This document shows positions 1,275 through 60,532 of a DNA stretch of 64,000 nt, one piece after another. Under the pieces are notes generated by a model. That model saw nothing but the letters and a program-made list of their open reading frames with translations, was not told where the DNA came from and did no database searches. The stretch spans positions 1,723 through 65,722 of the forward strand of contig JAGQLO010000001.1 of NCBI GenBank assembly GCA_020429185.1, in the 5' to 3' direction. Each line of letters begins with the position of its first letter. Position 1 is the first letter of the stretch. The translations under genes were made by a program, and so were the position numbers. The stretch is from Candidatus Doudnabacteria bacterium (GTDB taxonomy: Bacteria; Patescibacteriota; JABMPQ01; JAGQLO01).

Positions 1275-2237
1275 CTAAAACGATTCTTTCCAGGAATAGG
1301 CACTGTGCGACCACGTCACGAGTGCTTTTATATCTTGAAACCGTGCATCCGAGGTTTCACTTCCAAAGACAACAGAAATGAGTTCATTTCCGTCGTCGTC
1401 TGATGACAAGACCACCATGCAGTATCCCGCATCATCTGTGAAGCCTGTCTTGCCCCCAATCACACGAGGATAAGCACTCTTGAGCAACTCATTTGTTGAG
1501 ACGACTGTTCGCACATCCTCTGCATTCTGAACCTGTGCTGAGTATCCAGATGTTTCGATCGCCTCTAAGAATGCTGGCTCGTCGAGCGCAACATCAAACA
1601 ATCGAGCAATATCAACAACCGAAGTCTGATGTCCGTCCTGATCGAGGCCCGTAGGATTCTTGTATGCAGTATGAACCATGCCGAGATCCGATGCCGTTTC
1701 GTTCATACGCGCAACAAACGCGTCAACACTCCCCGCTGTTGAAACGGCAAGTTGCACCGCCGCATCGTTCCCAGAAGCAACAAGTGCGCCCGTAAGCACA
1801 TCACCAAAACGAAGTTCATCCCCTTCCTGCAACTGCATCGATGCACCCGGCATCGCAGCTGCCTGAGAACTAACAACAATCGTGTCATCTAGATTGACAC
1901 CGCTTTGCAGTGCCACAAGGGCTGTCATCACCTTTGTAATACTTGCAGGCGCCCGAACAACCTCTGGCGATTTTTCAAACAACACTTCCCCACTACGACG
2001 ATCTACAACTAACGCCGACTGTGCGGTTATAACAGGCCCAAGACTTTCAGATACCTTTGTAGGAGCAAAGAACGAGCGCTCCTCCTCGACAAACCCAGAG
2101 CCACCACCCTCAATAGAATCTGTTGACTCCCTCACGAGAAGCACATCACTGACTTGAGGCTCAAGAGAAGCCTGAAGATCCGCCTCGATCGAGGCGGCAA
2201 ATGTCAGAACAGTGGCGAGTAAGAGTTCAGCGAGCAT
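1275..2237 (-). CDS. D-alanyl-D-alanine carboxypeptidase (S11 / PBP5-like)
   Basis: SxxK (SITK) and SGN motifs of serine DD-peptidases; N-terminal signal-like segment. Confidence 0.75.
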   Translation of the reverse strand: MLAELLLATVLTFAASIEADLQASLEPQVSDVLLVRESTDSIEGGGSGFVEEERSFFAPTKVSESLGPVITAQSALVVDRRSGEVLFEKSPEVVRAPASITKVMTALVALQSGVNLDDTIVVSSQAAAMPGASMQLQEGDELRFGDVLTGALVASGNDAAVQLAVSTAGSVDAFVARMNETASDLGMVHTAYKNPTGLDQDGHQTSVVDIARLFDVALDEPAFLEAIETSGYSAQVQNAEDVRTVVSTNELLKSAYPRVIGGKTGFTDDAGYCMVVLSSDDDGNELISVVFGSETSDARFQDIKALVTWSHSAYSWKESF

Positions 2238-3030: not shown

Positions 3031-4598
3031 AATCCACCATCTTGTAAAAACTTCACAAACATACGCAACGTCAACACGTGCAACGGGGCATTATCGTCGG
3101 TAAACACACGAACATCCGGATCGTACGAAACAAGCTGTGCCGTAGTCACAACACGAGAAAGCTCTTGAAGTTCTGCAGGAACAGAGTCAACGTAACGAGT
3201 TCCCTCATAGGGATCAAACGATCCATCCGTCGCAATGAGCATTTTATTGTGAAAGCCCGGAACTTGACCGACATACGTACGATCAAACACGCTCGCGAGC
3301 GTGTTTTGCATTCCAAGCGCCAACTCTGAATCAGAAGCGAGCGTCACAACATTCATAGCAACAACACCTTCAGGTTCCAAATGAGCCCGCGCCTCCTCAA
3401 AAAATTCTTGCGTCGCAAGCTCTGGGGGCGCAGTCGTCTCGTTCTGAAATGCGTCGACATAGATAAAGTCGTACAGCGTATCTACATCCTGCAGAAACGA
3501 ACGCCCGTCGGAGACATGTACCTCTAACGATTCAATGTCGTCCAACGCAAAGTGTGTTCGAGCCAAACGAACCATTTCTGGGTCAATTTCAACCCCATCG
3601 ATATGCAGCCTTATCGAAGGATCAAGTGCTGCCTCCAACGCACGCGGTCCAGAACCACCCGCAAGTCCAAGTGACAACACGCGAATGTGCTTATCTTCTG
3701 GCGGATCTTGCAATAGCGGAACCAAGGCAAAGATATCTGTGTAATCTCCCGCATAAGGAGTGGAAGGATCCCATGACGACTGCACCCCAAGACCTTCGTT
3801 CACGCGCAATTGTCTGACTCCTTCTTCCGTTTCCACGACAGCAATGTACTGCAAGAACGACTCCGTCTCATCGATCACACCTTCGCGTGCCAATACAGGC
3901 GAAAGAGAAGGTGTTGCAAACAGCACGACCAGCAATACAGCGACAACGCTTGCAGCTCGCTTTCCCCACGTTTGAATCAAGCCAGGGACAACAAGCAGAA
4001 GCAACACAACGCCAAGCGAGACAAATAGTAACCGAGTTCCAAGCAGCGGCAGCAACACGAGAGGACCCACGAACACACCGATTAAGCTTCCAATCGTAGA
4101 AATGGTATAGACCCGTCCAGCTGTTTGCCCCACATGATTCTCAGCTTCCGATCGCTGAAGCATGGAAATCACATAAGGCGAGGTCATGCTCAACAACACC
4201 ATCGGCAAGGCAAGTGAAAGCATCATCACGACAAAGGTAGCAATCAGGCGACCAGCGCTCACACTCCCCGTCAAGGCTCCAAACAAGGTGGCAGTTGGGA
4301 AAAGCCACGCAGCCAAAAATGGTACGAATGCAATCAGAATTGCACCGACCAACAACCACAGTAACAACGGCCTCATCGACTCAGATCGATCTGCCAAACG
4401 ACCGCCTATTGAGTACCCAACAGCAAGCGCTGCAAGAACAACTCCAATGACAGACGTCCAAACCAACAACGAGGTTCCAAAGGCAGGGGCCAGCAGCGGC
4501 GTCGCAGAAAGTTCTGCAGCTGTGATAATCACCCCATCTGTAAAGGCGAGCGCATACGCATACCAAGGACGCACAGAACGTTGAATGCTCTTATTCAT
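3027..4598 (-). CDS. Fused membrane domain / spermidine synthase-like aminopropyltransferase (COG4262-like)
   Basis: N-terminal multi-TM region followed by a class I methyltransferase/spermidine-synthase-like fold (LSLGLAGGSG ... FIYVDAF). Confidence 0.65.
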   Translation of the reverse strand: MNKSIQRSVRPWYAYALAFTDGVIITAAELSATPLLAPAFGTSLLVWTSVIGVVLAALAVGYSIGGRLADRSESMRPLLLWLLVGAILIAFVPFLAAWLFPTATLFGALTGSVSAGRLIATFVVMMLSLALPMVLLSMTSPYVISMLQRSEAENHVGQTAGRVYTISTIGSLIGVFVGPLVLLPLLGTRLLFVSLGVVLLLLVVPGLIQTWGKRAASVVAVLLVVLFATPSLSPVLAREGVIDETESFLQYIAVVETEEGVRQLRVNEGLGVQSSWDPSTPYAGDYTDIFALVPLLQDPPEDKHIRVLSLGLAGGSGPRALEAALDPSIRLHIDGVEIDPEMVRLARTHFALDDIESLEVHVSDGRSFLQDVDTLYDFIYVDAFQNETTAPPELATQEFFEEARAHLEPEGVVAMNVVTLASDSELALGMQNTLASVFDRTYVGQVPGFHNKMLIATDGSFDPYEGTRYVDSVPAELQELSRVVTTAQLVSYDPDVRVFTDDNAPLHVLTLRMFVKFLQDGGF

Positions 4599-6631: not shown

Positions 6632-7624
6632 TTAGTTCTTGCGCGCAGCAACAGCTTTTGCTGCTTCTATGATATCAGCTGCCGTCATTCCGTATTTCTC
6701 TAACAGTTCCGTGGGTTCGCCTGACTCACCAAAACTATCTGGCATTCCAACGCGCTGCATGGGAGTCGGAAGATGTTCTGAAAGCACCTCAGCAACGGCA
6801 CCGCCCAACCCACCAGTCACCTGGTGTTCTTCAACCGTCACAACAGCGCCTGTCTTCTTTGCAGACGCAACAACAGATTCAACATCAAACGGCTTGATCG
6901 TATGAAGATTGATCACCTCCAGCGATAACTCGCCTTCCAGTATGTTCGCGGCAAGCAAAGCCTCGTGCACAAGCGGACCACACCCTATGACAGTCACGTC
7001 TGTCCCCTCGGTGAGAACTTGCGCCTTCCCAATCTCAAACGGAGTCTCCTCTGTTGTAAAGACCGGAGTCTTCTCTCGTGCAAATCGTAGATATACTGGA
7101 CCATCGATTGCATATGCAGCCTCAGTTGCTTGTTTCGTCTGAATGGCGTCACAGGGAGCAAGAACCGTCATTCCCGGAAGCACGCGCGTCAATGCAATAT
7201 CTTCCATAGCCTGATGTGTTGCCCCATCAGGACCTACAGAAATTCCTGTATGAGCCCCTGCAATCTTTACATTCGTATTATTGTAGGCGATCGAAATACG
7301 CACTTGGTCCCAGTTGCGTCCAGGACAAAACACTCCGTACGTTGAAATGAACGGGACTTTTCCTTCTTTCGCCATACCCGCGGCAAGTACGGCCATGTTC
7401 TGCTCCGCAATTCCAACTTGTACGAACCGCTCGGGAAACTTCTCTTTGAAATATCCTGCACGTGTAGAATCTGTAAGGTCTGCACACAGCACTACAACAT
7501 CTTCATGCTGTGCACCAAGCGAAACAACTCCCTCACCAAATCCATTCCGAGTCGGCACTTGCTCAAGCTTACTCACGTCAAACGCGTCTGCAGACAACTT
7601 TAATTGAGGATTGAGTTTCGGCAT
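6632..7624 (-). CDS. Transketolase, C-terminal subunit (split tkt)
   Basis: Similar to the transketolase pyrimidine-binding and C-terminal domains. Confidence 0.85.
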   Translation of the reverse strand: MPKLNPQLKLSADAFDVSKLEQVPTRNGFGEGVVSLGAQHEDVVVLCADLTDSTRAGYFKEKFPERFVQVGIAEQNMAVLAAGMAKEGKVPFISTYGVFCPGRNWDQVRISIAYNNTNVKIAGAHTGISVGPDGATHQAMEDIALTRVLPGMTVLAPCDAIQTKQATEAAYAIDGPVYLRFAREKTPVFTTEETPFEIGKAQVLTEGTDVTVIGCGPLVHEALLAANILEGELSLEVINLHTIKPFDVESVVASAKKTGAVVTVEEHQVTGGLGGAVAEVLSEHLPTPMQRVGMPDSFGESGEPTELLEKYGMTAADIIEAAKAVAARKN

Positions 7625-24163: not shown

Positions 24164-24568
24164 ATGGCGAAGATCGACCTGCCGGAGACACCCGTTGTCT
24201 GGGTGCCGCCGGTCATTGTGCGTGAAGTGGCGGACTGGGACCTGCAACTGAGGTTCGGCGAGGCACAGAAGCCGGATCGCTTCAGTCAAGGCGTGTTCTG
24301 TCCGCTTCTGTCCCCGCTGCCGGACAGTCCCCGGGTCAGCCTACTGGTCGGACACGAGGCACTCCCGGTGGAGGGAGACGAGTGGTACCTTCTGATCATT
24401 CGAAATCCGCACCGCAATGAGATCGGTTTCGTGGCCACCTGGCAGCCGGGTACACGAAGCCTGATCATCTTGGAGCGGGAGCTGAACCTCGACGGCCCCA
24501 ACGGGTACATCCAACGGTTCCGCAGCATGTACCCCACGCAGCCCCCACGACCGTCCGCTCCGGCCTGA
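24164..24568 (+). CDS. Hypothetical protein (134 aa) encoded on a GC-rich island (about 63% GC). It is the only plus-strand gene in a roughly 14-kb minus-strand block.
   Basis: Strong SD GGAAGGAGGAG upstream of ATG(MAKIDL). The composition is clearly atypical for the locus. A weak terminator follows. Confidence 0.45.
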   Translation: MAKIDLPETPVVWVPPVIVREVADWDLQLRFGEAQKPDRFSQGVFCPLLSPLPDSPRVSLLVGHEALPVEGDEWYLLIIRNPHRNEIGFVATWQPGTRSLIILERELNLDGPNGYIQRFRSMYPTQPPRPSAPA

Positions 24569-24590
24569 ACCGCTGAGCACGGTCTTTTTT
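24569..24590 (+). terminator. Weak rho-independent terminator after the GC-rich ORF
   Basis: ACCG-ctgagca-CGGT followed by CTTTTTT. Confidence 0.25.
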
Positions 24591-24610
24591 CTTACCTAGG
24601 AACGGTCTCC

Positions 24611-30870: not shown

Positions 30871-33612
30871 TTATCGTGCAACTTGAATACCACCGCTGAA
30901 TCCGGCGATATGCGAATCGAATACAGACAACTGCCGACCCACACTCGAGAACACTTGCGATGGCGCTGCAAGCCCAGCTCCAGGAGTCACAAGCAAGTCA
31001 GATGTTCCATCACGACTTGAGTCAACAATCAGTGCATGAACACCAACCCCCTTCTTTGCGGCATCATAGGCATAGAACGAGGCACGCTCCTCTCCGTCTT
31101 TTGTGAAAACGCGTACGTGCGGCTGCCCAATTTCTGGCGTGGTGACAATTTCCAACACTCCATCACCATCAAGATCTCCAAGTGAGAGATGTACTCCACC
31201 AATAAAGTTCTCGAACGCGAAGAACCCAGATTGCAGCTCTCCGGTGCCAGAGAAGACGTTCACATGCGCTCCCATCCCTGCGCGTGGTGCCAAGACAATT
31301 TCATCCTTTCGGTCACCAGAAACGTCTCCGACAGCTAGATGATATCCGCCCCGAAGTTGTTTGTTGTCAAAGGAGAAGAACGACGCAAGCTCTGTTCCTG
31401 TTCCCGTAAACACGCGCACATGAGGCGAACCACCAGAACTTGGCACGGTAATCAACTCATCCGTTCCGTCTCCATTCGTGTCACCAGAACGAACCAAGAC
31501 ACCGCCACGAAACTGCTCATCGTAGGCAAAAAAACTTGCACGCTGGATTCCTGATCCAGAAAAGACTCGAACATGTGGACCTCCTGCCGCCATCGGCGAC
31601 ACCACAATTTCTTCAACAGCATCTCCATCGATATCTGCAAGCTCAAGATGTGTTCCTCCACGGAATTCAGAAGAGAAGGCCATAAAGACATGCTCCTGCG
31701 TTCCATCCATCGAGAACACGCGCACTTCTGGAGCAGCGCCAGGACCTTGCACAGCAACAATTTCATCAAATCCATCACCATCTACATCTCCAACTTGAAC
31801 TTCGAGTCCTGCATGACTCGACGAATCAAACGCAAAGAAACTGTCTACCGTTTTCCAAGTAGAATCTTTCACGACAACCTGTGGCCCACCCCCAGCACCC
31901 GGCGTGAATACATAAAGAGAAGACTCCTGCATGGCTGGCAGTGGCTGACCAGCAAGCGCCAGCACAGCATAGGAAGTCATCAATGCTGTTCCGTCCAGTC
32001 CATCTATCCAAGCAAACGAGCCATTCTCCTGCTGCAATGCAAGCATGAAATGAATAGGCGTCTTATTGTTCTTTTGCCAGTCCATTGGATCTTCGCCAAG
32101 CGCATAGATGGCCTGCACGGCCCACGCTGTAGAAGCAACATTGGCAGCATAACCAGACTCGTAGGCAAATCCTCCATCTGGCTTTTGCTGCTGTACCAAG
32201 AACGTCCGAGCATCCCTCAGTGCACTAGACACGTTCTTGAGACCCCCATGGTCCCGATACAACACAAGTGCCTGAATAGCAGCGGCAGTTGTGTCGGTAT
32301 CGCTCGAACCACCAACGGTAAAGGCATACCCACCATCCACGTTCTGATGCTCTAACAACATCTTAATTCCATCTACAACAAGTGGATCCGCTGCCGACTC
32401 TTTTGCTGCCAATAATGCGATCACGCCAAATACATCATCATTCACAAGTGCCACATCTCCAATCTGTCCCGATCCTGAATGACGACGAATCGGGCTCACC
32501 CAATCCTGTCCTTCCCAGTTATGAGGATCCCCACCTGCGGCCACCACAGCAAGAACCTGACGCTCCCAATCCAGTACCGTTGCCCCTTCACCTGGAACAA
32601 CAGCCCCGATCATCTTTGCAACCGATTTTGAAGAAGACCCAACAGAATCAAGTGACCGACCTCCAGCAGCGAGCGCCATACCTGCCCAAGATGTAGCCCC
32701 AGGCGTTTCAATCACATCTCCACCCACGGACGCTTGCTCCTGTAAGAACTGTAATCCACGCGAAAGCGCCTGCGTTTGCTGTCGAGGCAACGAATCAACA
32801 AACTCGGCGTTTCGAGCGTAGACCTGTAACGGCGTTGCCGCACTCCGTGTATCAGATGTCCGTTCTGCGATCACACGAAAACTTCCTGCAAACGACGGAG
32901 TAAATGAAACAGTTCCGTCTGTTCCCGTCATGAATATCTCAGTATCAACCAACACTGTTGCCTCGTTTGCTGGTTCATACGCATGACTCTCATCGTCGTA
33001 CACCAGAACAGTTGCTGTCAGTGAATCTCCAACCAATACCTCGTTCGTAGAGAGCTCAACACTCAAAGGCGAAGAAGGCCATCCGCCCAAGGTGAGAAGA
33101 AGTTCATCTCCTTCGGCCAATGTGTGGTCCGCAAGACCATCCATGGGTGAAACGCCATTCACACGATATAACCAGAACAACGATTCTGTTTGTGATTGAC
33201 CAGCAACCTCAGAAAGGAATAGGCCAAAATCTGTATCTTGCACCGCATAGTCAAACCCCCACCATGTCGCTGCCGTATCAAGAGCACACAATGCCACACC
33301 ACCCTCAAGAGTGTGCTGCACGCCAACAGCGTCGGTAATGACACACGTCTCCGGAACGGTCACAAGCGTATCGACAACAGTGGCGTCCGGCGTCTCCACA
33401 CGAACAGTTGCTGTCGTTGTCACGGCCGCCACTCCACGATCGCGAGGAGCCAGCAGTACAACTGCACAAGCCGCCACCGCAAGCAGAACAAGAACAGCGA
33501 CTACAAGCCGGATACGCCAATCACCCAAAACTGAGCGCCAGGCTGCCACCGATGAAAACGAGAGAGGTAGAGACATACAGCATTGAAATGACGAGTGCCA
33601 ATCGAACGTCAC
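30871..33612 (-). CDS. Large cell-surface protein: TM anchor, a prenyltransferase/squalene-oxidase-like alpha/alpha-toroid repeat region, and an about 7-bladed FG-GAP beta-propeller
   Basis: The toroid repeats (QxxDGGF/W) lie in the middle of the protein. The C-terminal half carries repeated FG-GAP units (VGDVDGDGFDEIVxxxxxGxxPxVRVFSGxG...FFAY). No CxEQ thioester motif was seen. Confidence 0.6.
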   Translation of the reverse strand: MTFDWHSSFQCCMSLPLSFSSVAAWRSVLGDWRIRLVVAVLVLLAVAACAVVLLAPRDRGVAAVTTTATVRVETPDATVVDTLVTVPETCVITDAVGVQHTLEGGVALCALDTAATWWGFDYAVQDTDFGLFLSEVAGQSQTESLFWLYRVNGVSPMDGLADHTLAEGDELLLTLGGWPSSPLSVELSTNEVLVGDSLTATVLVYDDESHAYEPANEATVLVDTEIFMTGTDGTVSFTPSFAGSFRVIAERTSDTRSAATPLQVYARNAEFVDSLPRQQTQALSRGLQFLQEQASVGGDVIETPGATSWAGMALAAGGRSLDSVGSSSKSVAKMIGAVVPGEGATVLDWERQVLAVVAAGGDPHNWEGQDWVSPIRRHSGSGQIGDVALVNDDVFGVIALLAAKESAADPLVVDGIKMLLEHQNVDGGYAFTVGGSSDTDTTAAAIQALVLYRDHGGLKNVSSALRDARTFLVQQQKPDGGFAYESGYAANVASTAWAVQAIYALGEDPMDWQKNNKTPIHFMLALQQENGSFAWIDGLDGTALMTSYAVLALAGQPLPAMQESSLYVFTPGAGGGPQVVVKDSTWKTVDSFFAFDSSSHAGLEVQVGDVDGDGFDEIVAVQGPGAAPEVRVFSMDGTQEHVFMAFSSEFRGGTHLELADIDGDAVEEIVVSPMAAGGPHVRVFSGSGIQRASFFAYDEQFRGGVLVRSGDTNGDGTDELITVPSSGGSPHVRVFTGTGTELASFFSFDNKQLRGGYHLAVGDVSGDRKDEIVLAPRAGMGAHVNVFSGTGELQSGFFAFENFIGGVHLSLGDLDGDGVLEIVTTPEIGQPHVRVFTKDGEERASFYAYDAAKKGVGVHALIVDSSRDGTSDLLVTPGAGLAAPSQVFSSVGRQLSVFDSHIAGFSGGIQVAR

Positions 33613-34610: not shown

Positions 34611-35891
34611 TCATGCATCCAATTCCTCAGAAGAAGCATCTGTAATGAAACGCTTCTGGAATCCGAGCCCTGGAATATCTTGCTTCTTCTGGATCTGCAT
34701 AAGAGAACCTCGACGCACAACCATTTCACCATAGCGATCATTCAAAAGATCACATGCTGCCAACGCAGATTCCATACGATGCGCATCTTTCATAAAGAGT
34801 TGTTGCTGCTCAGCACCCCACTCTAAATTTGAAACAGTAACCCCAACCAATCGCACACGATCCAACAAAAACACAGGTTGAAATAGTTCTTTAACCTGCC
34901 CATAAATCGCGTACCCATCTGAAAGAGGCCGCGACAACGTCACACGTCGACCTTCAGAATGAAACGACTGATAGCGAATACGAATAGAAATAGTGCGACC
35001 TCGCGTCTGCTTACGGCGCAACCTCCTACCCACCTTCTCTGAAAGATGAAGAAAAGTTGCAAGTAGCGCCGCACGGTTAGACGTAGGTTGAATCGTGCGC
35101 TGATGCCCCATCGACTTTTCATCTTTCATGGTATGAAACGACACAACCTGGTCGGAACCCTGCCCAAATGCCACCCCCTTTAACCATCGTGCAGCATGAG
35201 ATCCAAACGAACGCACTAATACATCGGGTGGAATTTCTTGTAATTGAGAAAATGTACGAATTCCAAGACGATGTAGTCTCTTAGAAATCCTTGGACCAAT
35301 ACCACACACATCTGTAAGACGAACCGAACGAATCACGCTCACAGCCCGCTCTGGCGTGATCAAAGTAAGCCCATCCGGCTTTTTCATGTCCGAAGCAAGT
35401 TTCGCAAGAACTTTATTAGGAGCAACGCCAATGGAACACGTCACCCACTCCCCAACCTCCTCTTGAATGCGGTGCTTTAAACGTAATGCGAGTTGTGTCA
35501 CACCACCAAAACGCGAGGCCGTGTCTGTAATATCAATAAACGCTTCATCTGCACTAAACACTTCAACGTTCGGAGAAAACTCCTGATAAATCTCAATGAG
35601 TTGTTTTGTGACATGGGAATACATCGCAAAAGTCGGAGGAACAATTTTCACCTGAGGAAACTCTGCTAAAAGACGATGCGAAGGACTAGGAACCTTAACC
35701 CCTAATTGTTTCGCTTCAACAGAGGCAGTAACCACAACACCTCCATGTCCTTTTCCACCGATGGCAATAGGCACTCCGCGCAGTCGCGGATTCGCCTGCT
35801 GCTCAAGCGTGGCAAAATACGAATTCATGTCGACATGAAGAATCTGTCGAGAACCAGAGGTGTTGGTGTGTTGATCTAGACCGAACGACAT
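34611..35891 (-). CDS. dinB: DNA polymerase IV (Y-family translesion polymerase)
   Basis: ILHVDMNSYFA N-terminus. Start set at MSFGL, preceded by a GGGAGG SD. SOS context. Confidence 0.85.
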   Translation of the reverse strand: MSFGLDQHTNTSGSRQILHVDMNSYFATLEQQANPRLRGVPIAIGGKGHGGVVVTASVEAKQLGVKVPSPSHRLLAEFPQVKIVPPTFAMYSHVTKQLIEIYQEFSPNVEVFSADEAFIDITDTASRFGGVTQLALRLKHRIQEEVGEWVTCSIGVAPNKVLAKLASDMKKPDGLTLITPERAVSVIRSVRLTDVCGIGPRISKRLHRLGIRTFSQLQEIPPDVLVRSFGSHAARWLKGVAFGQGSDQVVSFHTMKDEKSMGHQRTIQPTSNRAALLATFLHLSEKVGRRLRRKQTRGRTISIRIRYQSFHSEGRRVTLSRPLSDGYAIYGQVKELFQPVFLLDRVRLVGVTVSNLEWGAEQQQLFMKDAHRMESALAACDLLNDRYGEMVVRRGSLMQIQKKQDIPGLGFQKRFITDASSEELDA

Positions 35892-35906
35892 ACCTCCCAC
35901 AAACAA

Positions 35907-35936
35907 AAGGCAGAGGTCATCTGACCTCTGCCTTTG
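35907..35936 (-). terminator. Rho-independent terminator (14-bp stem) between doxX and dinB
   Basis: AAAGGCAGAGGTCA-TC-TGACCTCTGCCTTT. On the minus strand it is followed by TTTTGTTTGTG, and the dinB SD follows directly. Confidence 0.45.
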
Positions 35937-35952
35937 AAACAGAAATGTCGAG

Positions 35953-36447
35953 TTATCCAGCTAACAACTGAATCCAACGTTTGTCCTTGGCCCAAGCCGA
36001 GGAAATCAATAACTTGTCGAGACCGCACACTGAACCAGCCCCACCAGCCATAAACAATGCAAATACGAGCATGTACACCACGTGTTCGTCGATCAAGAAG
36101 GAGTGCTCGAATGGATACCCTGAAAGGTAGTAAAAGAGCATCAACACAAATCCCCAAAATGCTGAAAAGCGCGTAAAGAATCCAAAAACTAATGCCAGCC
36201 CAACAAGAGTAAGTCCTAACATATTCAACCAATCGACCGCCGCATTTCCGGCCATCCAAGAGAACCAGGAGGCGAAGGGCCCTTCGAGATGCGAAAGATA
36301 TCCTGTTGCAGACCAACCACCTTCGGTAAAAAGCTTGTCGAGACCAGCGTAAAGCAATACCCATCCAAGGGAGACCCTGAGAGCAACAAGCCAGAATCGG
36401 GAAACCATCGTACGACCCTTCCCACCGGAAGAAGCTGTTTGTTTCAT
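35953..36447 (-). CDS. DoxX-family membrane protein
   Basis: DoxX-like 4-TM protein (VALRVSLGWVLLYAGLDKL ...). Confidence 0.6.
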   Translation of the reverse strand: MKQTASSGGKGRTMVSRFWLVALRVSLGWVLLYAGLDKLFTEGGWSATGYLSHLEGPFASWFSWMAGNAAVDWLNMLGLTLVGLALVFGFFTRFSAFWGFVLMLFYYLSGYPFEHSFLIDEHVVYMLVFALFMAGGAGSVCGLDKLLISSAWAKDKRWIQLLAG

Positions 36448-36624: not shown

Positions 36625-36891
36625 TTACTCAACGTACAGATCAACCAACTTCCAGGCGAGAGATCCCGTATCAAACGAAAGCTTGAAAAATGCTTCTTCG
36701 TTCGAGGCGGCAAAGTGATACACCCGATCACGTCCCTGACGTTCCTGATAAACAAGATTTACTTTATTGACGGGATACGTACGACCTTCCCACTTAAACA
36801 CCTGAGGACGAACTTTATCTCCATTAAAGAGAGCGGAAACAGATACCGGAGAATCGATTTTTGCGTGCATAAAGAGTAATGAATGAAGCAA
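36625..36891 (-). CDS. Hypothetical small protein (88 aa) in the SOS cassette
   Basis: Non-repetitive ORF between lexA and doxX with no recognisable motif. It may be SOS-regulated. Confidence 0.3.
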   Translation of the reverse strand: MLHSLLFMHAKIDSPVSVSALFNGDKVRPQVFKWEGRTYPVNKVNLVYQERQGRDRVYHFAASNEEAFFKLSFDTGSLAWKLVDLYVE

Positions 36892-37166
36892 AGAGAGATC
36901 ACTTATTGTAGAACAATCTTTTCGAGCCGGTCGTTAACTCGAATTTGAATTCCATGAAGGGAATGAATCTGACGAGTTAACCCACGCACAGGACATCGAT
37001 CTGTACATCCTCCATCATCTGCATGCATGTAATAACAGATGTCATTCAGAGAGGAGATGGCGTGAATCTTTTTTTGTTCGAGATAGCTCATACATCGTGG
37101 GATTAGTGGGATGGATGGAGCCACTCAGTGCCGGGGCGTATCAATTGAGGAAGAAGAGTTACCTAC

Positions 37167-37793
37167 CTAGTCATAGGCGCGTGTCACCGCTACAACCTTT
37201 CCTTGAATAGTCCATTCGGAGTCAGGGTAAATATCTGGGTAATCAGGATTTTCCGCTTTGAGATAAGCAACGCCATCTTTCATCATGAAGCGTTTCACTG
37301 TGGTCTCACCATCATCGAGCAGAGCCACCACAATGTCCCCATGAGAAGGTTGCACTCCCTGGCGAACCAACACACGATCATCTTCGAGAATGCCCGCGTC
37401 ACGCATACTCTCTCCACGGACTCGCAACAGAAATGTATCTTGAAATCCTCCAACAAGATCTGCAGGCAATGTAATGTTGTCTTCAATATTTTCATCAGCG
37501 AGAACAGGAGTTCCGGCAACAACATCACCAACAAGTGGCACTGATACTGTGTCGCTCGAAAGTGACTCGCCGAGCGTATTCAATACCTCAATACCACGTG
37601 CAGAGGAGTCACGACGGATGTAGCCACCTTCTTCCAAACGTCGCAACAACTTTGCCACAGAATTCTTAGAAGAAACTCCGATAGCAGTTGCCATTTGCGA
37701 AAACGTGGGCGGAACACGTCGTTCGCGAATCTCTTCGATAATGAACTCGAGGAGATGGCGTTGTTTTGGCGTGAGGTCTGACATGTGACTCAT
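37167..37793 (-). CDS. lexA: LexA repressor
   Basis: N-terminal winged HTH; S24 peptidase with the Ser (GESM) / Lys (VKRF) dyad. Confidence 0.9.
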   Translation of the reverse strand: MSHMSDLTPKQRHLLEFIIEEIRERRVPPTFSQMATAIGVSSKNSVAKLLRRLEEGGYIRRDSSARGIEVLNTLGESLSSDTVSVPLVGDVVAGTPVLADENIEDNITLPADLVGGFQDTFLLRVRGESMRDAGILEDDRVLVRQGVQPSHGDIVVALLDDGETTVKRFMMKDGVAYLKAENPDYPDIYPDSEWTIQGKVVAVTRAYD

Positions 37794-37827
37794 CCGTCGT
37801 TAGTAATTCCTCGTACATTTCAAAGGT

Positions 37828-37839
37828 AAACGATCGTTC
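37828..37839. promoter_or_regulatory. Candidate LexA (Cheo-like) box upstream of lexA
   Basis: GAACGATCGTTT / AAACGATCGTTC near-palindrome (GAAC-N4-GTTy) about 35 bp upstream of the lexA start codon. Confidence 0.3.
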
Positions 37840-37888
37840 ACCTATGGTCAACACCGATTATCCACAAAAGAAAAAGCCTGACACAAGG

Positions 37889-38419
37889 TCAGGACATGCG
37901 CGCGGCCAACCGCTTGAGCGGTTCGGTCAGCTCGGTCAAGATCGCGGGCATCTGGCAGTGCAATACATGATCGAGATCACTACCACCCACGGAAGGAAGC
38001 GACGCACGCAACTCTCGCTGCACATCGGGGTGCAACCCAGCACCGACGACGAGACGAAGCTGCGGACCGGAACGAACGAAGTCCAGCACGTGTCTCACCG
38101 TGTAGATGTTCACGCCACCAGGTCGCTCCAACTCCTCGCCAGGACGCACCACATCCCCCACCAGAAACACCGCCTGAGAAAACAGGTGTGCGCCGCGACC
38201 GAACTGCTTGAACCGCTGCACAGTCACCTGCTCAGCACACGATCCAAGCGTTGCAAGGACGGCCGGAAACCGATCGCCCCAGGCATCGCGTGCACTCATC
38301 CAAAATAGCGTGAGCGGGCGATCCGGAAACGCCTCGACCAGCTTCTTGACGGTCACACGGAGAGCTTCGCTCCCGTGCACCACCTCGGGCAACACGAGCA
38401 ACACGGACAAATCTTCCAA
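37889..38419 (-). CDS. SulA/ImuA-like RecA-fold protein on a GC-rich island (about 60% GC), immediately upstream of lexA
   Basis: The pattern LLVLP ... RPLTLFWMSARDAW resembles the SulA LLLLP ... RWQLWLTPQQKLSREW region. About 175 aa. Probable TTG start after a GGAGG. Confidence 0.35.
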   Translation of the reverse strand: MEDLSVLLVLPEVVHGSEALRVTVKKLVEAFPDRPLTLFWMSARDAWGDRFPAVLATLGSCAEQVTVQRFKQFGRGAHLFSQAVFLVGDVVRPGEELERPGGVNIYTVRHVLDFVRSGPQLRLVVGAGLHPDVQRELRASLPSVGGSDLDHVLHCQMPAILTELTEPLKRLAARMS

Positions 38420-38507
38420 GGGATTCCCCCTCCTCAATAATCCAAGGTTCGTAGAACTACCAAAGCAAAAAGGAGGGGAAAGTCAATCCCACTCCTTTAA
38501 GACACTG

Positions 38508-40325
38508 TTACAAATCCAGGTCGCTGGCACCACCAGAAGAATTCTGAAATGGATCAGGGACAAAAGAGGAATCATCCTGCTGAACCGTTTTTGGAGCCGG
38601 AACAGAACCCGAACGAGAAGATTGATTCTGGGAATCTCCATCCTTCTTGCCCCCCTTCCCTTTGTTGCGAGAGCGATCTTCAGAAGACGAATCAGAGGAG
38701 CCTTTTCCACCATCCTTCAATGCTTCAGCGAACGCCTTCTTAAAGGGTTGTGCGGTTGAACTAGTTCCACCATCTTTTCGTTCATTCTTTTTCTTTTGAA
38801 TCTTCTCAGCCATTCCAGTCAGATTGTTCTTGGCTGCGTTACGATTTTTTTCGGGAGAACGACGCGACTGCCCACTCCCACCTTTTCCACCACCAGAACC
38901 ACCGCGATCTCCTGAAGGACGTCCACCACGGTCGCCACCACCTGAAGAACTGCCTCCGCCACGACTGCCTTTATTGCCGCCCCCTGAATGACGTCCGCCT
39001 GAACCTCCAGATTCGCGACGTGCAGGAGAGCCACTCTCGTCATCAAATCCACTCCATCGCGCAATACGATCTTCTACCAATTCACGATTCGATCCGTATC
39101 GCTCACGCGAAACACGCATGATCGTCTCTCGGTTTCCTTGAGGGTCCCACTCAGGAGGAAGGGTGGCGGCTGAGAACGCAGAAGAAGCAACTCCACGAAT
39201 CATTAGTTTCAACATCACTTCAAATTTCGGAAGGTTCACAAGATCATTTTCTGTGAAGATTGGCTCGAATTCCTTCACCATAAACTCCGCATCGGCTGCG
39301 CCAACACGAAAAGCTACCAACGTTCCGACGTTTCCAAACACCGCATCACGCACAGGCTCTTCAAGCTGCGCAATATACTGGTGTGCCATGATCAAGCACA
39401 GGCGATACTTTCTCGCTTCCGACAGAATGTCTGCAAATGATTCCGTGGCAAAGTTCTGAAACTCGTCAACATACAAATAGAAGTCCTTTCGTTCCTCTTC
39501 GGGAATGTCAGATCGAGACATGGCTGCCAACTGAATCTTGGTGATCACCATGGCACCAAACAGTGCAGATGCGTCCTCACCAATACGACCCTTTGCAAGG
39601 TTCAACAACACAATTTTGTTGTTGTCCATGAGATTCCGCATGTCTAACGTGGACTGCGGCTGTCCCACAATATTGCGAATCAATGAAATCGAAAGGAACT
39701 GACCGACCTTGTTCTGAATAGGAGAAATCGCTTCCGCCTTCAATTTATCGGTGTACTTCGCATACTCATTCACCCAAAATGAGCGAACAACAGGATCTTT
39801 CACTTTTGTAAGCACCTCTTCGCGAAAATCATCGTCGGAAAAGATTCGCAAAATGCCCAGCAATGTAGAACCTGGATACTCCAAAAGTGCCAAGATGGCA
39901 TTTCGCAACAAATACTCCAGACGAGGACCCCAGGAATCTGCCCAAATCTTCTTAAACACCCCCACCAACCCAGCTGACACAAGGTGTCGATACCGAGGAT
40001 CAACCGCCTCCATCACATTGAATGCGATCGGAAAATCAAGATCAGCCGGATCAAAATACACGACGTCGTTCACGCGATGCGATGGCACATAATCCAACAT
40101 CAATTCGGCAAAATCACCGTGTGGATCTACGAGACAGAGGCCATTGCCAGCGTTCATGTCTGACACCACCATATTCTGCAACAACGTCGACTTCCCCATT
40201 CCCGTCTTACCAATCACATACATGTGACGCCGACGATCATCTCGCATGATGCCAAACCGCTTCGCGGCATTACGGAAGTTTGTTTGTCCGAAGACGGTCA
40301 AATCTGTGTCTTGTGCGTCTGGCAT
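38508..40325 (-). CDS. Soluble VirD4/TraG/TrwB-like type IV coupling-protein ATPase with a G/S-rich disordered C-terminal tail
   Basis: Walker A GKTGMGKST, Walker B YLYVDEFQNF, and the T4CP ARKYRLCLIMAHQYIAQL (Q..AQL) motif. No N-terminal TM. The last about 170 aa are low-complexity G/S/R/K-rich. Confidence 0.6.
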   Translation of the reverse strand: MPDAQDTDLTVFGQTNFRNAAKRFGIMRDDRRRHMYVIGKTGMGKSTLLQNMVVSDMNAGNGLCLVDPHGDFAELMLDYVPSHRVNDVVYFDPADLDFPIAFNVMEAVDPRYRHLVSAGLVGVFKKIWADSWGPRLEYLLRNAILALLEYPGSTLLGILRIFSDDDFREEVLTKVKDPVVRSFWVNEYAKYTDKLKAEAISPIQNKVGQFLSISLIRNIVGQPQSTLDMRNLMDNNKIVLLNLAKGRIGEDASALFGAMVITKIQLAAMSRSDIPEEERKDFYLYVDEFQNFATESFADILSEARKYRLCLIMAHQYIAQLEEPVRDAVFGNVGTLVAFRVGAADAEFMVKEFEPIFTENDLVNLPKFEVMLKLMIRGVASSAFSAATLPPEWDPQGNRETIMRVSRERYGSNRELVEDRIARWSGFDDESGSPARRESGGSGGRHSGGGNKGSRGGGSSSGGGDRGGRPSGDRGGSGGGKGGSGQSRRSPEKNRNAAKNNLTGMAEKIQKKKNERKDGGTSSTAQPFKKAFAEALKDGGKGSSDSSSEDRSRNKGKGGKKDGDSQNQSSRSGSVPAPKTVQQDDSSFVPDPFQNSSGGASDLDL

Positions 40326-40346: not shown

Positions 40347-41687
40347 TTAACGTTCGATCGGAAGATCCTGAGGAGGCTGCGCCGAGCGCGTTGCGGAACG
40401 TTCCAGGGATGGCGCCGTCGTCGTACGGTACGGAAAATGAAAGAGCGTTGCTAACTCATCAGTACTCATTCGAACAGGATTCGAACCCGCTCCCATGTCC
40501 CGATAGCGATAATTCGTCACCAGCTTTTGCTGTAAACGAGGAATTTTCCATTTTGCGTAATCACGCTTTGCCTTCGTTTTTCGATCAAGCTTCAATCCAT
40601 TCAAATGCTCGGTATTCACCAACATCAATCCACCTACCGCATTTCCAAAATTCACTTTTTGAAACACTTCATGCTTTGCAATATACACACCCCGCATTTT
40701 TACAACGTAGGCCAGCTTTCCAATATTCTCTTCAACAGCTTTCAACACTTCCCGCTCACCAGGAGAAAGCATAGGAAGATCATCACCATCATCTGCACTG
40801 TCTCCACCCTCAGGAAGAGGAGCGCCAGCCATTGCGCCCAACGTATCTACACCCGTGTGCAAAGCACCAGTGAGAAAACGACCCACAATATCGTCATACT
40901 TTGCCTTACTACGCTTCATCATCTCATCTACAAGCGCCAACCCTTCTTTGCGCATCTTTCCACTTGGGTCAGGGGCCACAATGATTTGAAACCAAATCTG
41001 TTCGCCTTCTCCAAGAGCACCCAATGTTTCAACAAACGCTCCAATAGGATCAATGTAATTGTATTCAGCTTCACCAAGACGGTTTTCGAAGTGTGCGTAC
41101 GTTCGAATCGGATACGCGTCGGGCTTCGTAAAGGTAATATCAGCCCCGTACACCTTCCACGTTTCGTCCGGAAATTTCTTTGGAGCAAACAACGTATAAT
41201 CTTCCACTTCTTGAATTTCTGCATCGGGATACTGCGCGTAAATATGCGCATCAAATGTTGGGCGAATCTTCTTCGGAGTTCGAATCAGAAAACGAACAAA
41301 GCCATTGATACCAACAATCTCAAACGACCAACTCAACTGAAACTCACCCTGAAACCACTTCTCAACGAAGTTTGGACCAGACTCATTCGTCCAAAGCGCT
41401 GTCATCACCTGTTCCATCGCCTTTGGCGTTTTATCATTCTCAGGCGGAACAGTAATCGCGATCAAATCCTTTTCAATGCTCGCAGCAAATTTATTCTGCT
41501 GATACATGAAAAACACGATGTAAAGCAACACAAGCGCAATAGCGATCCAAAGAGGCCACAGCGAACGCAACAAAAAACCATAGATCTCAAAGAAATCTAA
41601 ATAAGAACCAGCGGCACTCTGGCCCAGCTGAGAACCGAGCCCCTCTAATCCAAGATCGATTGTGTATGGTCCGACTTCGAAGTTCAT
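40347..41687 (-). CDS. Hypothetical membrane protein, probably co-transcribed with the T4CP-like ATPase
   Basis: N-terminal TM segment(s) (LWPLWIAIALVLLYIVFFMY) then an about 380-aa soluble domain. A 21-bp gap separates it from the downstream ATPase gene. Confidence 0.45.
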   Translation of the reverse strand: MNFEVGPYTIDLGLEGLGSQLGQSAAGSYLDFFEIYGFLLRSLWPLWIAIALVLLYIVFFMYQQNKFAASIEKDLIAITVPPENDKTPKAMEQVMTALWTNESGPNFVEKWFQGEFQLSWSFEIVGINGFVRFLIRTPKKIRPTFDAHIYAQYPDAEIQEVEDYTLFAPKKFPDETWKVYGADITFTKPDAYPIRTYAHFENRLGEAEYNYIDPIGAFVETLGALGEGEQIWFQIIVAPDPSGKMRKEGLALVDEMMKRSKAKYDDIVGRFLTGALHTGVDTLGAMAGAPLPEGGDSADDGDDLPMLSPGEREVLKAVEENIGKLAYVVKMRGVYIAKHEVFQKVNFGNAVGGLMLVNTEHLNGLKLDRKTKAKRDYAKWKIPRLQQKLVTNYRYRDMGAGSNPVRMSTDELATLFHFPYRTTTAPSLERSATRSAQPPQDLPIER

Positions 41688-60095: not shown

Positions 60096-60532
60096 GAGCG
60101 AACGCGAGTTGTACGCCGAATTTTGTCTACATAACACGCGAACGTGACATGGAGATGGTCATCTATCTAGGCCCATTGTTACCAATAGGCTCGAGCAATC
60201 TACCCGCTGCTCACAACTCGACTCGAGAGCGACTTGTGACAGCCTATATGATCTTGCACCAGATCGGGTTTACCCCACATGCATGTCACCATGCACATCC
60301 GTGAGCTCTTACCTCACACTTTTCAGCCTTACCTGTTCCGTCTTGCGACGGCCATCGGCGGTATATGTCTCTGTGGCACGAGCCCTACACTCCTGTCACT
60401 TCTTGCGAAGCCGCAGTGCGGTTGGCGTTACCAACGATCATGCTCCGCTATTCACATAACGGGGTGTTCGGACGTTCCTCGGGCTCGCTTAGTTGCCTAA
60501 CCGAGCACGCGACCATCCACTCGCATTCGCTC
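60096..60532 (-). ncRNA. rnpB: RNase P RNA (bacterial type), about 437 nt. Found by sequence pattern; not in the ORF track.
   Basis: Minus-strand sequence contains CGAGGAACGTCCG (P4 5' strand), ACCGCCGATGGCCGTCGCAAGACGGAACAGGTAAGGCTGAAAAGTGTGAGGTAAGAGCTCAC, GGGGTAAACCCGATCTGGTGCAAG and GGGCCTAGATAGATGAC. All are close matches to the E. coli M1 RNA conserved regions. P1 pairing: GAGCGAAUGCGAGU / ACUCGCGUUCGCUC. Confidence 0.75.

Follow-up and report, generated by a model that had tools for sequence, protein, structure and literature searches.

Operons in which lexA is followed by a standalone imuB-C gene and a Y-family polymerase gene have been described, with the Geobacter sulfurreducens genes GSU0041-0043 as type (Aravind 2013, Timinskas & Venclovas 2019). 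These lexA-imuB-C-polY operons were published as lacking imuA, and surveys found no imuA in genomes that carry them (PMC6511836). Other SOS products with which a neighbor of lexA may be compared are SulA (PF03846), the SOS cell-division inhibitor of E. coli and P. aeruginosa, and the mutasome proteins ImuA and ImuA'. The Cheo box, GAAC-N4-GTTC, is the operator of Gram-positive LexA (DinR).

We analyzed a lexA locus of Candidatus Doudnabacteria within a window of 64 kb, the whole stretch of DNA under study. The locus is largely ordinary, an apparently LexA-autoregulated lexA/ImuB-C-like/Y-family polymerase cassette of a previously described type. Directly upstream of lexA lies a GC-rich orphan gene, termed ORF-X, which a first-pass annotation had tentatively taken for a SulA- or ImuA-like SOS gene. 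In our judgment the locus probably holds two separate things side by side, namely a strain-variable, acquired gene outside the SOS regulon and the LexA operator of the lexA cassette.

The lexA cassette

The SOS module sits downstream of lexA and comprises lexA, orf63, the DUF6504 gene, doxX, and the Y-family polymerase gene, which makes it a member of the known ImuA-less cassette type. Its features and those of the adjoining region are listed in the table.

Table. Features of the lexA locus, in window coordinates.
Feature	Position	Strand	Evidence
Y-family (DinB-like) DNA polymerase gene	34611..35891	-	IMS 9e-41, IMS_C 1e-22; start from gene calls
Strong hairpin and UUUUGUUUG between doxX and the polymerase gene	35898..35935	-	-23.2 kcal/mol, z -4.8
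doxX-family membrane protein gene, inserted in the cassette	35953..36408	-	Pfam DoxX 8.4e-09
DUF6504 protein gene, 81 aa; putative standalone ImuB-C-like SOS accessory	36625..36870	-	PF20114 5.3e-05
orf63, conserved small Cys-containing ORF between lexA and the DUF6504 gene	36903..37094	-	syntenic with a 63-aa gene in L077, 76% aa identity
lexA, 205 aa	37167..37784	-	TIGR00498 4.9e-53; Peptidase_S24, LexA_DNA_bind
Predicted LexA operator, 20-nt palindrome AGGTGAACGATCGTTTACCT, core GAAC-N4-GTTT; extended palindrome 37821-37846	37824..37843	-	sequence and conservation
-10-like hexamer GATAAT of the lexA promoter, within conserved TGTGGATAAT	37857..37862	-	promoter scan
Weak terminator-like hairpin (6-bp stem overlapping the ORF-X stop codon) and CUUUUUCUUUU	37866..37893	-	scan; -8.6 kcal/mol, z -1.4
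ORF-X, 176-aa GC-rich orphan gene	37889..38419	-	NCBI MCA9375478.1, hypothetical protein, Candidatus Doudnabacteria
AGGAGG Shine-Dalgarno sequence of ORF-X	38429..38434	-	sequence; conserved in L001
11-nt perfect palindrome GTTCTACGAAC 5' of ORF-X	38447..38457	-	read from sequence; identical in L001
Terminator-like hairpin and U-run after the ATPase gene	38467..38498	-	RNA fold centroid -15.4 kcal/mol, z -2.35, then UUUUU
Gene of a VirD4/TraD-like coupling ATPase, 605 aa; bounds the variable slot on its upstream side	38508..40325	-	Pfam TrwB_AAD_bind 4.7e-09, DUF87 6.5e-09, TraG-D_C 1.6e-06

The translation of lexA contains the residues of an autocleavable LexA, that is, the Ala-Gly cleavage site (VVAGTP), the GESM serine, and the VKRF lysine. 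The orf63 product has no Pfam match, and the ORF is not called as a gene on contigs L023 and L024. The DUF6504 protein scores 23.8 bits against the PF20114 cut-off of 24.2, and its homologues score above that cut-off. A family search returned standalone proteins only (117), and a direct match to ImuB appeared neither there nor in a profile comparison with the PDB. The protein is small and beta-rich, and the family alignment has invariant W27 and W73. These features and the genomic contexts agree with published descriptions of standalone ImuB-C (PMC3765255, PMC6511836), and we infer that DUF6504 corresponds to ImuB-C.

The Y-family polymerase gene lies downstream in the same orientation, and its catalytic motifs, DMNSYF and SADEAFID, are intact in the translation. 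The same gene order is present in L004, L072, L077, and the P0068 contig; lexA and DUF6504 followed by either PolY or DnaE2 recur in these four and in L005. No DnaE2-sized ORF occurs between 33.6 and 43 kb of the window. The locus thus resembles the Geobacter-type operon in having a LexA operator, lexA, a small beta-rich standalone DUF6504 protein with a conserved C-terminal Trp, and an active DinB-like polymerase, but adds the conserved 63-aa ORF, the doxX insertion, and, ahead of the polymerase gene, a strong hairpin. The doxX insertion is missing from the L077 cassette (L077 and L073 layouts). None of 200 shuffled sequences folds as well as the hairpin, which includes a 20-nt palindrome at 35911. 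With this hairpin between the two genes, it is uncertain whether LexA controls the polymerase here.

The predicted LexA operator

A near-palindromic GAAC-N4-GTTy had been reported in the lexA promoter, and GAACGATCGTTT is indeed found there, at 37828-37839 on the minus strand, as the core of the longer palindrome AGGTGAACGATCGTTTACCT. By itself the short motif is about as frequent as chance predicts (7 matches in the window, 6.9 expected). The 20-nt palindrome pairs at 9 of its 10 positions, and palindromes of this kind number 7 in the window versus 1.9 expected; the 18-mer GGTGAACGATCGTWTACC, allowing up to 3 mismatches, has its sole occurrence in the window at the operator, versus 0.07 expected. 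The center of the operator lies approximately 50 nt 5' of the lexA start and 14 nt downstream of the -10-like GATAAT, with TTGACC flanking, and the operator overlaps the core promoter of lexA or adjoins it, the placement expected for autoregulation.

Of the 20 positions, 19 are identical in L071 and likewise 19 in L077. In L077, a genus-level relative, the operator lies in a conserved island of 27 nt, the rest of the intergenic DNA is unalignable, and the encoded proteins are only 60-75% identical; TGTGGATA of the lexA promoter is also conserved there. On the strength of sequence and conservation, the earlier call of a Cheo-like LexA box is supported: the palindrome is a real, conserved operator of lexA, to which LexA presumably binds. 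Like the Cheo box, it has a palindromic core (GAAC-GATC-GTTT) that overlaps the lexA promoter. It differs in that the arms extend to GGTGAAC/GTTyACC over 20 nt and that one of them is degenerate, reading GTTT in this locus and GTAT in L077. The closest LexA homologues, of KSB1/Calditrichota type and 51-54% identical, have GGTGAAC and GTTCACC arms in their own promoters, but these stand approximately 24-26 nt apart, unlike those of the Doudnabacteria operator. The cassette is thus documented in Candidatus Doudnabacteria together with a Cheo-like operator, GGTGAAC-N4-GTTyACC, which provides a testable operator sequence for the lineage.

In the proposed mechanism, a LexA dimer on the palindrome would block RNA polymerase at the lexA promoter, and RecA-stimulated self-cleavage of LexA at the Ala-Gly site would lift repression of lexA, orf63, the DUF6504 gene, and doxX. 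The transcription unit would extend to the Y-family polymerase gene, and derepress it too, by read-through of the hairpin. A second copy of the operator was found neither in the 64-kb window nor in the related loci, including upstream of the polymerase gene, and neither recA nor uvrA was seen among the ORFs scanned in the window.

ORF-X is a GC-rich, selected coding sequence

As the first-pass annotation had stated, the ORF directly upstream of lexA is GC-rich, at 61.0% versus 47-49% in its neighbors (48.5% for lexA, 49.1% for the coupling-ATPase gene, and 46.9% for the polymerase gene). GC at its three codon positions is 0.71/0.43/0.70, and the third-position value exceeds the 0.39-0.47 of neighboring genes. 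The GC content of ORF-X is approximately 4.9 SD above the window mean (400-nt windows, mean 0.493, sd 0.026). GC rises above 0.57 at only two places in the window, the ORF-X site (0.623) and 24201-24600 (0.627); the ORF of the latter island has no homology with ORF-X.

ORF-X begins with a TTG start codon 9 nt past AGGAGG. Compared with its 88%-identical allele in the related strain L001, differences fall 14/13/27 by codon position over 176 codons. ORF-X is coding in the minus frame, and the substitution pattern fits that frame only. Two plus-strand frames of the GC island (37844-38308 and 38208-38759) were rejected, as they have no Pfam match and the substitutions favor the minus frame alone. 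In the same comparison, dN/dS is 0.29 for ORF-X versus 0.04 for the coupling-ATPase gene, and the non-synonymous rate is approximately 4.5 times that of this neighbor (dN 0.069 versus 0.015). L001 keeps the Shine-Dalgarno sequence, start codon, full length, and terminator, and the same 176-aa protein was called in four other independent assemblies. The substitution data indicate that purifying selection has kept ORF-X between two strains. The dN/dS of 0.29 shows that selection maintains ORF-X in two strains or more, so it does something.

ORF-X has no detectable relatives and little likeness to SOS effectors

With a threshold of E<=1, ORF-X matched no family of Pfam, SulA and RecA being among those covered, and none of NCBIfam, PHROGs, or PADLOC. 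A word-indexed search of 5.8 billion clustered proteins gave 2 matches, and an exhaustive phmmer (HMMER) search of 1.84 billion representatives gave 3, namely ORF-X itself, a remnant, and one spurious repeat protein. The last of these, P0004 (507 aa), was rejected as a relative: it is PepSY-like, and its 5 repeats inflate the score. A tblastn search against plasmids and phages gave no match, phmmer against PDB sequences gave insignificant antibody matches only, and the 90% cluster of ORF-X is a singleton. ORF-X is therefore confined to a few closely related strains and has no detectable relatives beyond strain level.

Two AlphaFold models of low confidence (pLDDT 63 and 52) show a generic alternating beta/alpha domain, for which the nearest known folds are MTH0777 (PDB 1kjn) and other flavodoxin/Rossmann-like three-layer alpha/beta domains. 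Neither SulA nor RecA is among the fold-search matches listed for these models; the models are weak, and the protein could still have a RecA-like core. The ORF-X product may thus be a small cytoplasmic protein with a flavodoxin/Rossmann-like domain, and our best guess, drawn by inference, is that it would bind a ligand or nucleotide in an accessory role, loss of which would not harm the cell.

The proposal of an SOS-effector role for ORF-X, with a RecA-derived fold and under joint control with lexA, either as a division inhibitor of SulA type or as a mutasome subunit of ImuA type, draws on several features. ORF-X adjoins lexA on the same strand, its product is like SulA in its length of approximately 170 aa, its predicted three-layer alpha/beta fold would place it in the broad class of RecA and SulA, and a Y-family polymerase gene is near, as for ImuA. 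Its beta-alpha-beta start (LLVLP...LTLFWMS) may superficially resemble SulA. However, ORF-X has neither a SulA nor a RecA-family or ImuA profile match, and the SulA/ImuA-like pattern of the first-pass annotation was reproduced by no profile or fold method. Unlike SulA, it has no upstream LexA box and is not kept with lexA in relatives. Against an ImuA-like role, neither an adjacent dnaE2 nor an inactive imuB is present; the local polymerase is intact and paired with a standalone DUF6504 (ImuB-C-like) gene, as in the cassette type without ImuA (PMC6511836).

The arrangement of signals also speaks against SOS control of ORF-X. The LexA box lies downstream of the terminator-like hairpin of ORF-X and hence controls lexA, not ORF-X. 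The ORF-X upstream region (38420-38507) contains neither GAAC-N4-GTTY nor an operator-like 18-mer, and the promoter scan found no recognizable promoter of ORF-X's own. The GTTCTACGAAC palindrome in this region is not a LexA box, since its half-sites face outwards. Absence of the motif upstream of other SOS genes had been named beforehand as an observation that would count against the SOS assignment, and the motif stands before neither the polymerase gene nor ORF-X. Flanked by two terminator-like hairpins and lacking a LexA box, ORF-X would lie outside the SOS regulon. The stem of the hairpin before lexA is kept in L001 and L071, but the hairpin is weak, which counts in favor of co-regulation; the ORF-X and lexA transcripts may overlap by read-through, and some functional coupling is possible. 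Taken together, we regard an SOS-effector role as highly improbable. Position and a short motif alone are insufficient to annotate a lexA neighbor as SulA or ImuA.

The slot between the coupling-ATPase gene and lexA varies among relatives

Gene order in relatives was drawn from exact-protein look-ups; GTDB species genomes and JGI metagenomes gave no lexA relative above 54% identity. L071 lacks the ORF-X promoter region and codons 1-132, the deletion also taking out the 3' arm of the hairpin after the ATPase gene. The stop codon is lost, and a remnant of 44 codons is left. The remnant differs at 27 of 135 positions, spread 8/7/12 by codon position, compared with 1.4-4% in the flanks, and 14 of 19 lineage-specific changes are GC to AT. 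By its sequence, the L071 copy is a decaying remnant.

The deletion, lost stop codon, even spread of changes over codon positions, and AT-biased drift in L071 would suit functionless foreign DNA that is being lost, intact by chance in some strains and decaying in others. The faster non-synonymous change of ORF-X relative to the ATPase gene and its lack of homologues and of a recognizable promoter point the same way. The dN/dS and third-position excess described above do not fit such a view, nor do the expression signals and full length kept in L001 or the recovery of an identical protein from several samples, and we consider loss of a functionless sequence unlikely.

In the genus-level relative represented by L076 and L077 (amino acid identity of 70% for the coupling ATPase, 74% for LexA, and 73% for DUF6504), the slot between the coupling-ATPase gene and lexA holds a different GC-rich ORF of 260 aa (orf260). 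ORF-X is absent from the lexA loci of L004, L005, L072, and the P0068 contig, and the upstream neighbors of lexA in other Patescibacteria and in Calditrichota-type loci are unrelated. Since ORF-X was lost in L071 and replaced in L076/L077 while lexA and the downstream genes were kept, it is dispensable and replaceable, which argues further against an SOS effector and in particular against the suggested mutasome component.

Horizontal acquisition, raised as a possibility in the first-pass annotation, fits the foreign composition and patchy distribution of ORF-X. As neither a donor lineage nor flanking direct or inverted repeats, an integrase, a tRNA, or an Rfam family was found around ORF-X, the case for a foreign origin is made from composition and distribution. 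We therefore favor a horizontally acquired, strain-variable accessory gene, which would illustrate how foreign genes are gained and lost at particular intergenic slots in small symbiont-like genomes.

Variable cargo is commonly found beside transfer or secretion ATPases, and ORF-X could work with the upstream module (a DUF8128 membrane protein and the VirD4-like ATPase) as a variable substrate, adaptor, immunity gene, or defense/counter-defense gene. Both here and in the L077 genus the slot lies directly downstream of the ATPase gene on the same strand and holds a different GC-rich orphan in each, and the ATPase terminator is only moderate. Against this, ORF-X has no PADLOC or PHROG match, none of the fold matches of its models (pLDDT 63 and 52) is a known effector or immunity protein, the ATPase gene is set off from it by a hairpin and U-run, and the pattern comes from two sampled lineages. 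We find such a partnership more doubtful still than loss of a functionless sequence.

An equally doubtful extension would make the slot a capture site at which GC-rich genes of foreign origin have entered this Doudnabacteria lineage time and again (ORF-X, orf260, and the L071 remnant), with ORF-X founding a new protein family that acts with the adjacent ATPase or modulates lexA by read-through. If that were true, ORF-X would lie beside the SOS switch for a functional reason and not by accident. So far there is no sign of an unusual mechanism.

Homology between ORF-X and orf260 was rejected (hhalign probability 2%; Smith-Waterman score 46, shuffle p ~0.02). The two proteins nevertheless have in common a patch of 16 residues (RDAWGDrFPavLA in ORF-X, RDAFGDllPsevA in orf260 of L077; shuffle p ~0.02), which may be a final vestige of shared ancestry, in which case the slot gene would not have been replaced.

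A GC-rich orphan gene upstream of lexA

The minus strand carries every gene from 34.6 to 41.7 kb of the window, and within this run the 176-aa ORF-X separates a coupling-ATPase gene from lexA. ORF-X is a real gene in the minus frame. Its GC content is 61.0% (0.71/0.43/0.70 at codon positions 1/2/3), compared with 48.5% in lexA, 49.1% in the ATPase gene and 46.9% in the polymerase gene, bearing out the first-pass annotation of a GC-rich coding ORF beside lexA. In 400-nt windows (mean GC 0.493, sd 0.026), the whole stretch exceeds 0.57 at only two places, ORF-X (0.623) and 24201-24600 (0.627). The gene starts with TTG, with AGGAGG 9 nt ahead. Differences from the 88%-identical allele on strain contig L001 are distributed 14/13/27 over codon positions 1/2/3, and the corresponding dN/dS is 0.29, versus 0.04 for the neighboring ATPase gene. 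An identical protein is called on four more independent contigs. ORF-X is a compositionally foreign, strain-variable orphan with a generic α/β fold prediction, and we found no evidence of an SOS role for it. We consider it likely that this is an accessory foreign gene standing beside an ordinary autoregulated lexA/ImuB-C-like/PolY cassette.

Annotated features of the lexA locus and further elements of the window
Feature	Position	Strand	Remarks
DUF8128 membrane protein gene	40347..41687	-	First in transcription direction
VirD4/TraD-like coupling ATPase gene	38508..40325	-	Pfam TrwB_AAD_bind, DUF87, TraG-D_C
11-nt palindrome	38447-38457	-	GTTCTACGAAC (GTTC-TAC-GAAC), perfect
ORF-X	37889..38419	-	MCA9375478.1, "hypothetical protein"
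LexA operator	37824-37843	-	Core GAAC-N4-GTTT
lexA	37167..37784	-	TIGR00498, 4.9e-53
orf63 (63 aa)	36903..37094	-	Uncalled ORF
DUF6504 protein gene	36625..36870	-	Pfam, 23.8 bits, just under the cut-off of 24.2
doxX-family membrane protein gene	35953..36408	-	Pfam
Hairpin	35898-35935	-	13 bp, perfect; -23.2 kcal/mol, z -4.8
Y-family (DinB-like) polymerase gene	34611..35891	-	IMS, 9e-41
134-aa orphan ORF	24164-24568	+	GC peak 24201-24600
RNase P RNA, bacterial class A	60096-60528	-	208.6 bits
20-nt palindrome	3286-3305		Perfect, AACACGCTCGCGAGCGTGTT
20-nt palindrome	2179-2198		
20-nt palindrome	6645-6664		
20-nt palindrome	31802-31821		
20-nt palindrome	39604-39623		

Homology and predicted fold of ORF-X

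Searches of ORF-X against Pfam-A (the SulA and RecA models among them), NCBIfam, PHROGs and PADLOC returned no family match even at E ≤ 1, nor did plasmids, phages or the sequences in PDB yield any. Among 5.8 billion clustered proteins, a word-indexed search recovered only ORF-X itself and the 88% allele. When 1.84 billion representatives were scanned exhaustively with phmmer, the sole additions were a 61-aa remnant and a match to a repeat protein, which was rejected as spurious. The AlphaFold2 model, built on a two-sequence alignment, is weak (pLDDT 63, pTM 0.65) and has an alternating β/α pattern; modeling the 88% allele alone gave a further weak model (pLDDT 52) whose elements follow one another in the same order. 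Foldseek searches against PDB and BFVD yielded nothing below E = 0.03. At the level of fold class only, ORF-X is predicted to be a three-layer, flavodoxin/Rossmann-like α/β domain. The proposed likeness to SulA or ImuA is supported neither by these profile searches nor by the weak models, and it is very improbable that ORF-X is either protein.

The lexA operator and the control of ORF-X

The motif GAACGATCGTTT noted in the lexA promoter region is present at 37828-37839. The GAAC-N4-GTTY class of 12-mers is about as frequent in the window as chance predicts, with 7 copies against 6.9 expected. The copy at lexA is the core of a 20-nt palindrome, AGGTGAACGATCGTTTACCT, with 9 of 10 pairs matched, extending to 26 nt at 88% complementarity; allowing up to 3 mismatches, its 18-mer is unique in the window (0.07 expected). 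The Cheo-like LexA box is real and is conserved at 19 of 20 positions in the short contig L071 (…TACCC) and in the genus-level relative L077 (…GTATACCT). In L077 it lies inside a conserved 27-nt island, CATAGGTGAACGATCGTWTACCTTTGRA, and the remaining intergenic DNA is unalignable. The LexA protein has its HTH domain, Ala-Gly cleavage site and Ser/Lys dyad. We conclude that the palindrome is the autoregulatory operator of lexA, and infer binding by LexA itself. The window has 7 near-perfect 20-nt palindromes where 1.9 are expected; the further ones are listed in the table.

The closest LexA homologues are of KSB1/Calditrichota type (51-54% identity, versus 33-42% for other Patescibacteria), and their own promoters carry GGTGAAC and GTTCACC arms. 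In loci L002-L007 these inverted arms, GGTG(A/T)ACAT … (A/T)GTTCAC(C), stand about 40-110 nt upstream of lexA with a spacing of about 24-26 nt, and a TATAAT-like element immediately precedes them. The compact palindrome of the window differs from these spaced arms in operator architecture. Upstream of a Patescibacteria lexA (L072, 6840-7090) there are three copies of a ~60-nt element starting TATTGACGTTCGC, the last of which forms TTGACGTTCGCTTTTTGTTCGTATATAAT, with GTTCG directly repeated in the stretch from -35 to -10. It may correspond to the LexA motif of direct-repeat type that has been mentioned in Patescibacteria (PMC7739468).

A hairpin (-15.4 kcal/mol) with a U-run behind it closes the ATPase gene. 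At the 3' end of ORF-X, a weak 6-bp hairpin (-8.6 kcal/mol) overlaps the stop codon and is followed by CUUUUUCUUUU; next come a -10-like GATAAT (within TGTGGATAAT), TTGACC and the palindrome. Since the LexA box lies past the ORF-X hairpin, it is downstream of ORF-X and part of the lexA promoter. Neither GAAC-N4-GTTY nor anything operator-like occurs in the 88 nt that precede ORF-X. The first-pass annotation had also taken ORF-X to be probably under SOS control, naming beforehand the promoters at which the motif should recur; with the motif absent from ORF-X's own promoter and from the dinB-like polymerase gene, that reading fails. The LexA box regulates lexA, not ORF-X. The palindrome GTTCTACGAAC, whose LexA-type half-sites point outwards and which is identical in L001, follows the terminator of the ATPase gene and precedes the ORF-X Shine-Dalgarno sequence; L077 has a related AGTTCTCCGA after the ATPase stop codon.

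ORF-X in related genomes

An intact ORF-X with 88% amino acid identity is found in the L001 strain. The 771-nt contig L071, from the same study as two contigs with intact ORF-X, differs from the window at 4/143 positions in the ATPase gene tail, 4/97 in the lexA promoter and 5/369 in lexA, and carries a deletion from mid-ATPase terminator through ORF-X codon 132. The 44 remaining codons have lost the stop codon and differ at 27/135 positions (8/7/12 by codon position), and 14 of the 19 changes specific to the L071 lineage are GC to AT. This copy is a decaying remnant. That ORF-X as such is functionless decaying DNA is improbable. At L071 173-307 (window 37889-38023) the remnant is 20% diverged, versus 1.4-4% in its flanks (the ATPase gene tail, and lexA with its promoter; Fisher p about 1e-12), which exceeds the neutral decay predicted from the flanks' synonymous rate. 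The excess might come from flank-homogenizing recombination, from AT-biased decay proceeding faster where DNA is GC-rich, or from an assembly effect in so short a contig.

In the genus-level relative (L076/L077), the gene order is that of the window (amino acid identity: ATPase 70%, LexA 74%, orf63 76%, DUF6504 73%, PolY 60%), with the ATPase-lexA slot filled instead by a 260-aa ORF of 59.5% GC (genome 53%) that has its own terminator-like hairpin and no Pfam family. Homology between this ORF and ORF-X was not detectable (hhalign probability 2%); a Smith-Waterman shuffle p of about 0.02 is due to one 16-residue patch. Farther afield, lexA of KSB1/Calditrichota-type bacteria and lexA of other Patescibacteria have unrelated upstream neighbors. 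Because ORF-X has decayed or been replaced in relatives, it is an accessory, replaceable occupant of the slot and not a conserved lexA partner. It is also improbable, slightly more so than decaying DNA, that ORF-X works together with the coupling ATPase encoded beside it. Only its composition and its patchy occurrence suggest that the accessory gene is of foreign origin; the slot is flanked by no repeats and has neither a tRNA nor an integrase.

The cassette downstream of lexA

Downstream of lexA follow orf63, the DUF6504 gene, doxX and the DinB-like polymerase gene. The polymerase has DMNSYF and SADEAFID motifs and is predicted to be active. DUF6504 homologues adjoining lexA in L004 and L005 exceed the Pfam cut-off, and the family search gathered 117 proteins from Calditrichota/KSB1 and Patescibacteria, all standalone, 78-127 aa long, with an invariant Trp near the C-terminus. 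Standalone "ImuB-C" proteins, which the window protein matches in description, are small and β-rich with a conserved C-terminal Trp, and their genes keep company most commonly with DinB and LexA (Aravind et al., 2013, PMC3765255). L004, L072, L077 and the P0068 contig likewise have the order lexA-DUF6504-PolY, with lexA-DUF6504-DnaE2 in L005, and in the window it matches the described lexA-imuB-C-polY operons; no imuA was found in such operons or genomes, and RecA was proposed as the ImuA substitute (Timinskas and Venclovas, 2019, PMC6511836). We infer that DUF6504 is ImuB-C; DUF6504 searches gave no link to full-length ImuB. The cassette is a new example of an already known type. ORF-X defies classification, and its mechanism is not demonstrably new.

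The orf63 product has three Cys and no Pfam family and is 76% identical to its 63-aa syntenic counterpart in L077, and orf63 is not called as a gene on contigs L023 and L024; in this lineage it may belong to the SOS cassette as one more conserved gene. doxX lies inside the cassette in the window species and the P0006 strain (L073) and is absent from it in L077, L072 and L004. Between doxX and the polymerase gene stands a strong hairpin with a U-run, the stem being followed by UUUUGUUUG, so co-transcription of the polymerase with lexA is not assured. It lies only ~10 nt from the polymerase Shine-Dalgarno sequence, leaving no room for a promoter, and might terminate or attenuate transcription or else stabilize the transcript; the L073 doxX-polY spacer is just 19 nt. 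The relatedness of LexA and DUF6504 was compared over L002-L007, L015, L016 and L072. The DUF6504 protein is nearest to Patescibacteria homologues (51% versus 33-38%), whereas LexA is nearest to the KSB1/Calditrichota type, which suggests that the SOS cassette is mosaic or laterally exchanged.

Other features of the window

A scan of the window for Rfam families gave RNase P RNA alone, and a search for tRNA genes gave none. The second GC-rich island is a single orphan ORF of 134 aa (63.5% GC, GC3 0.77) between an FtsA-like gene and alaS, on the opposite strand to all its neighbors. It has no Pfam match, stands alone in its 90% cluster and shares no similarity with ORF-X. A TTGACA-type promoter-like site, a GGAGG Shine-Dalgarno sequence and a T-run past the stop accompany it, and its origin may be of the same kind as that of ORF-X.
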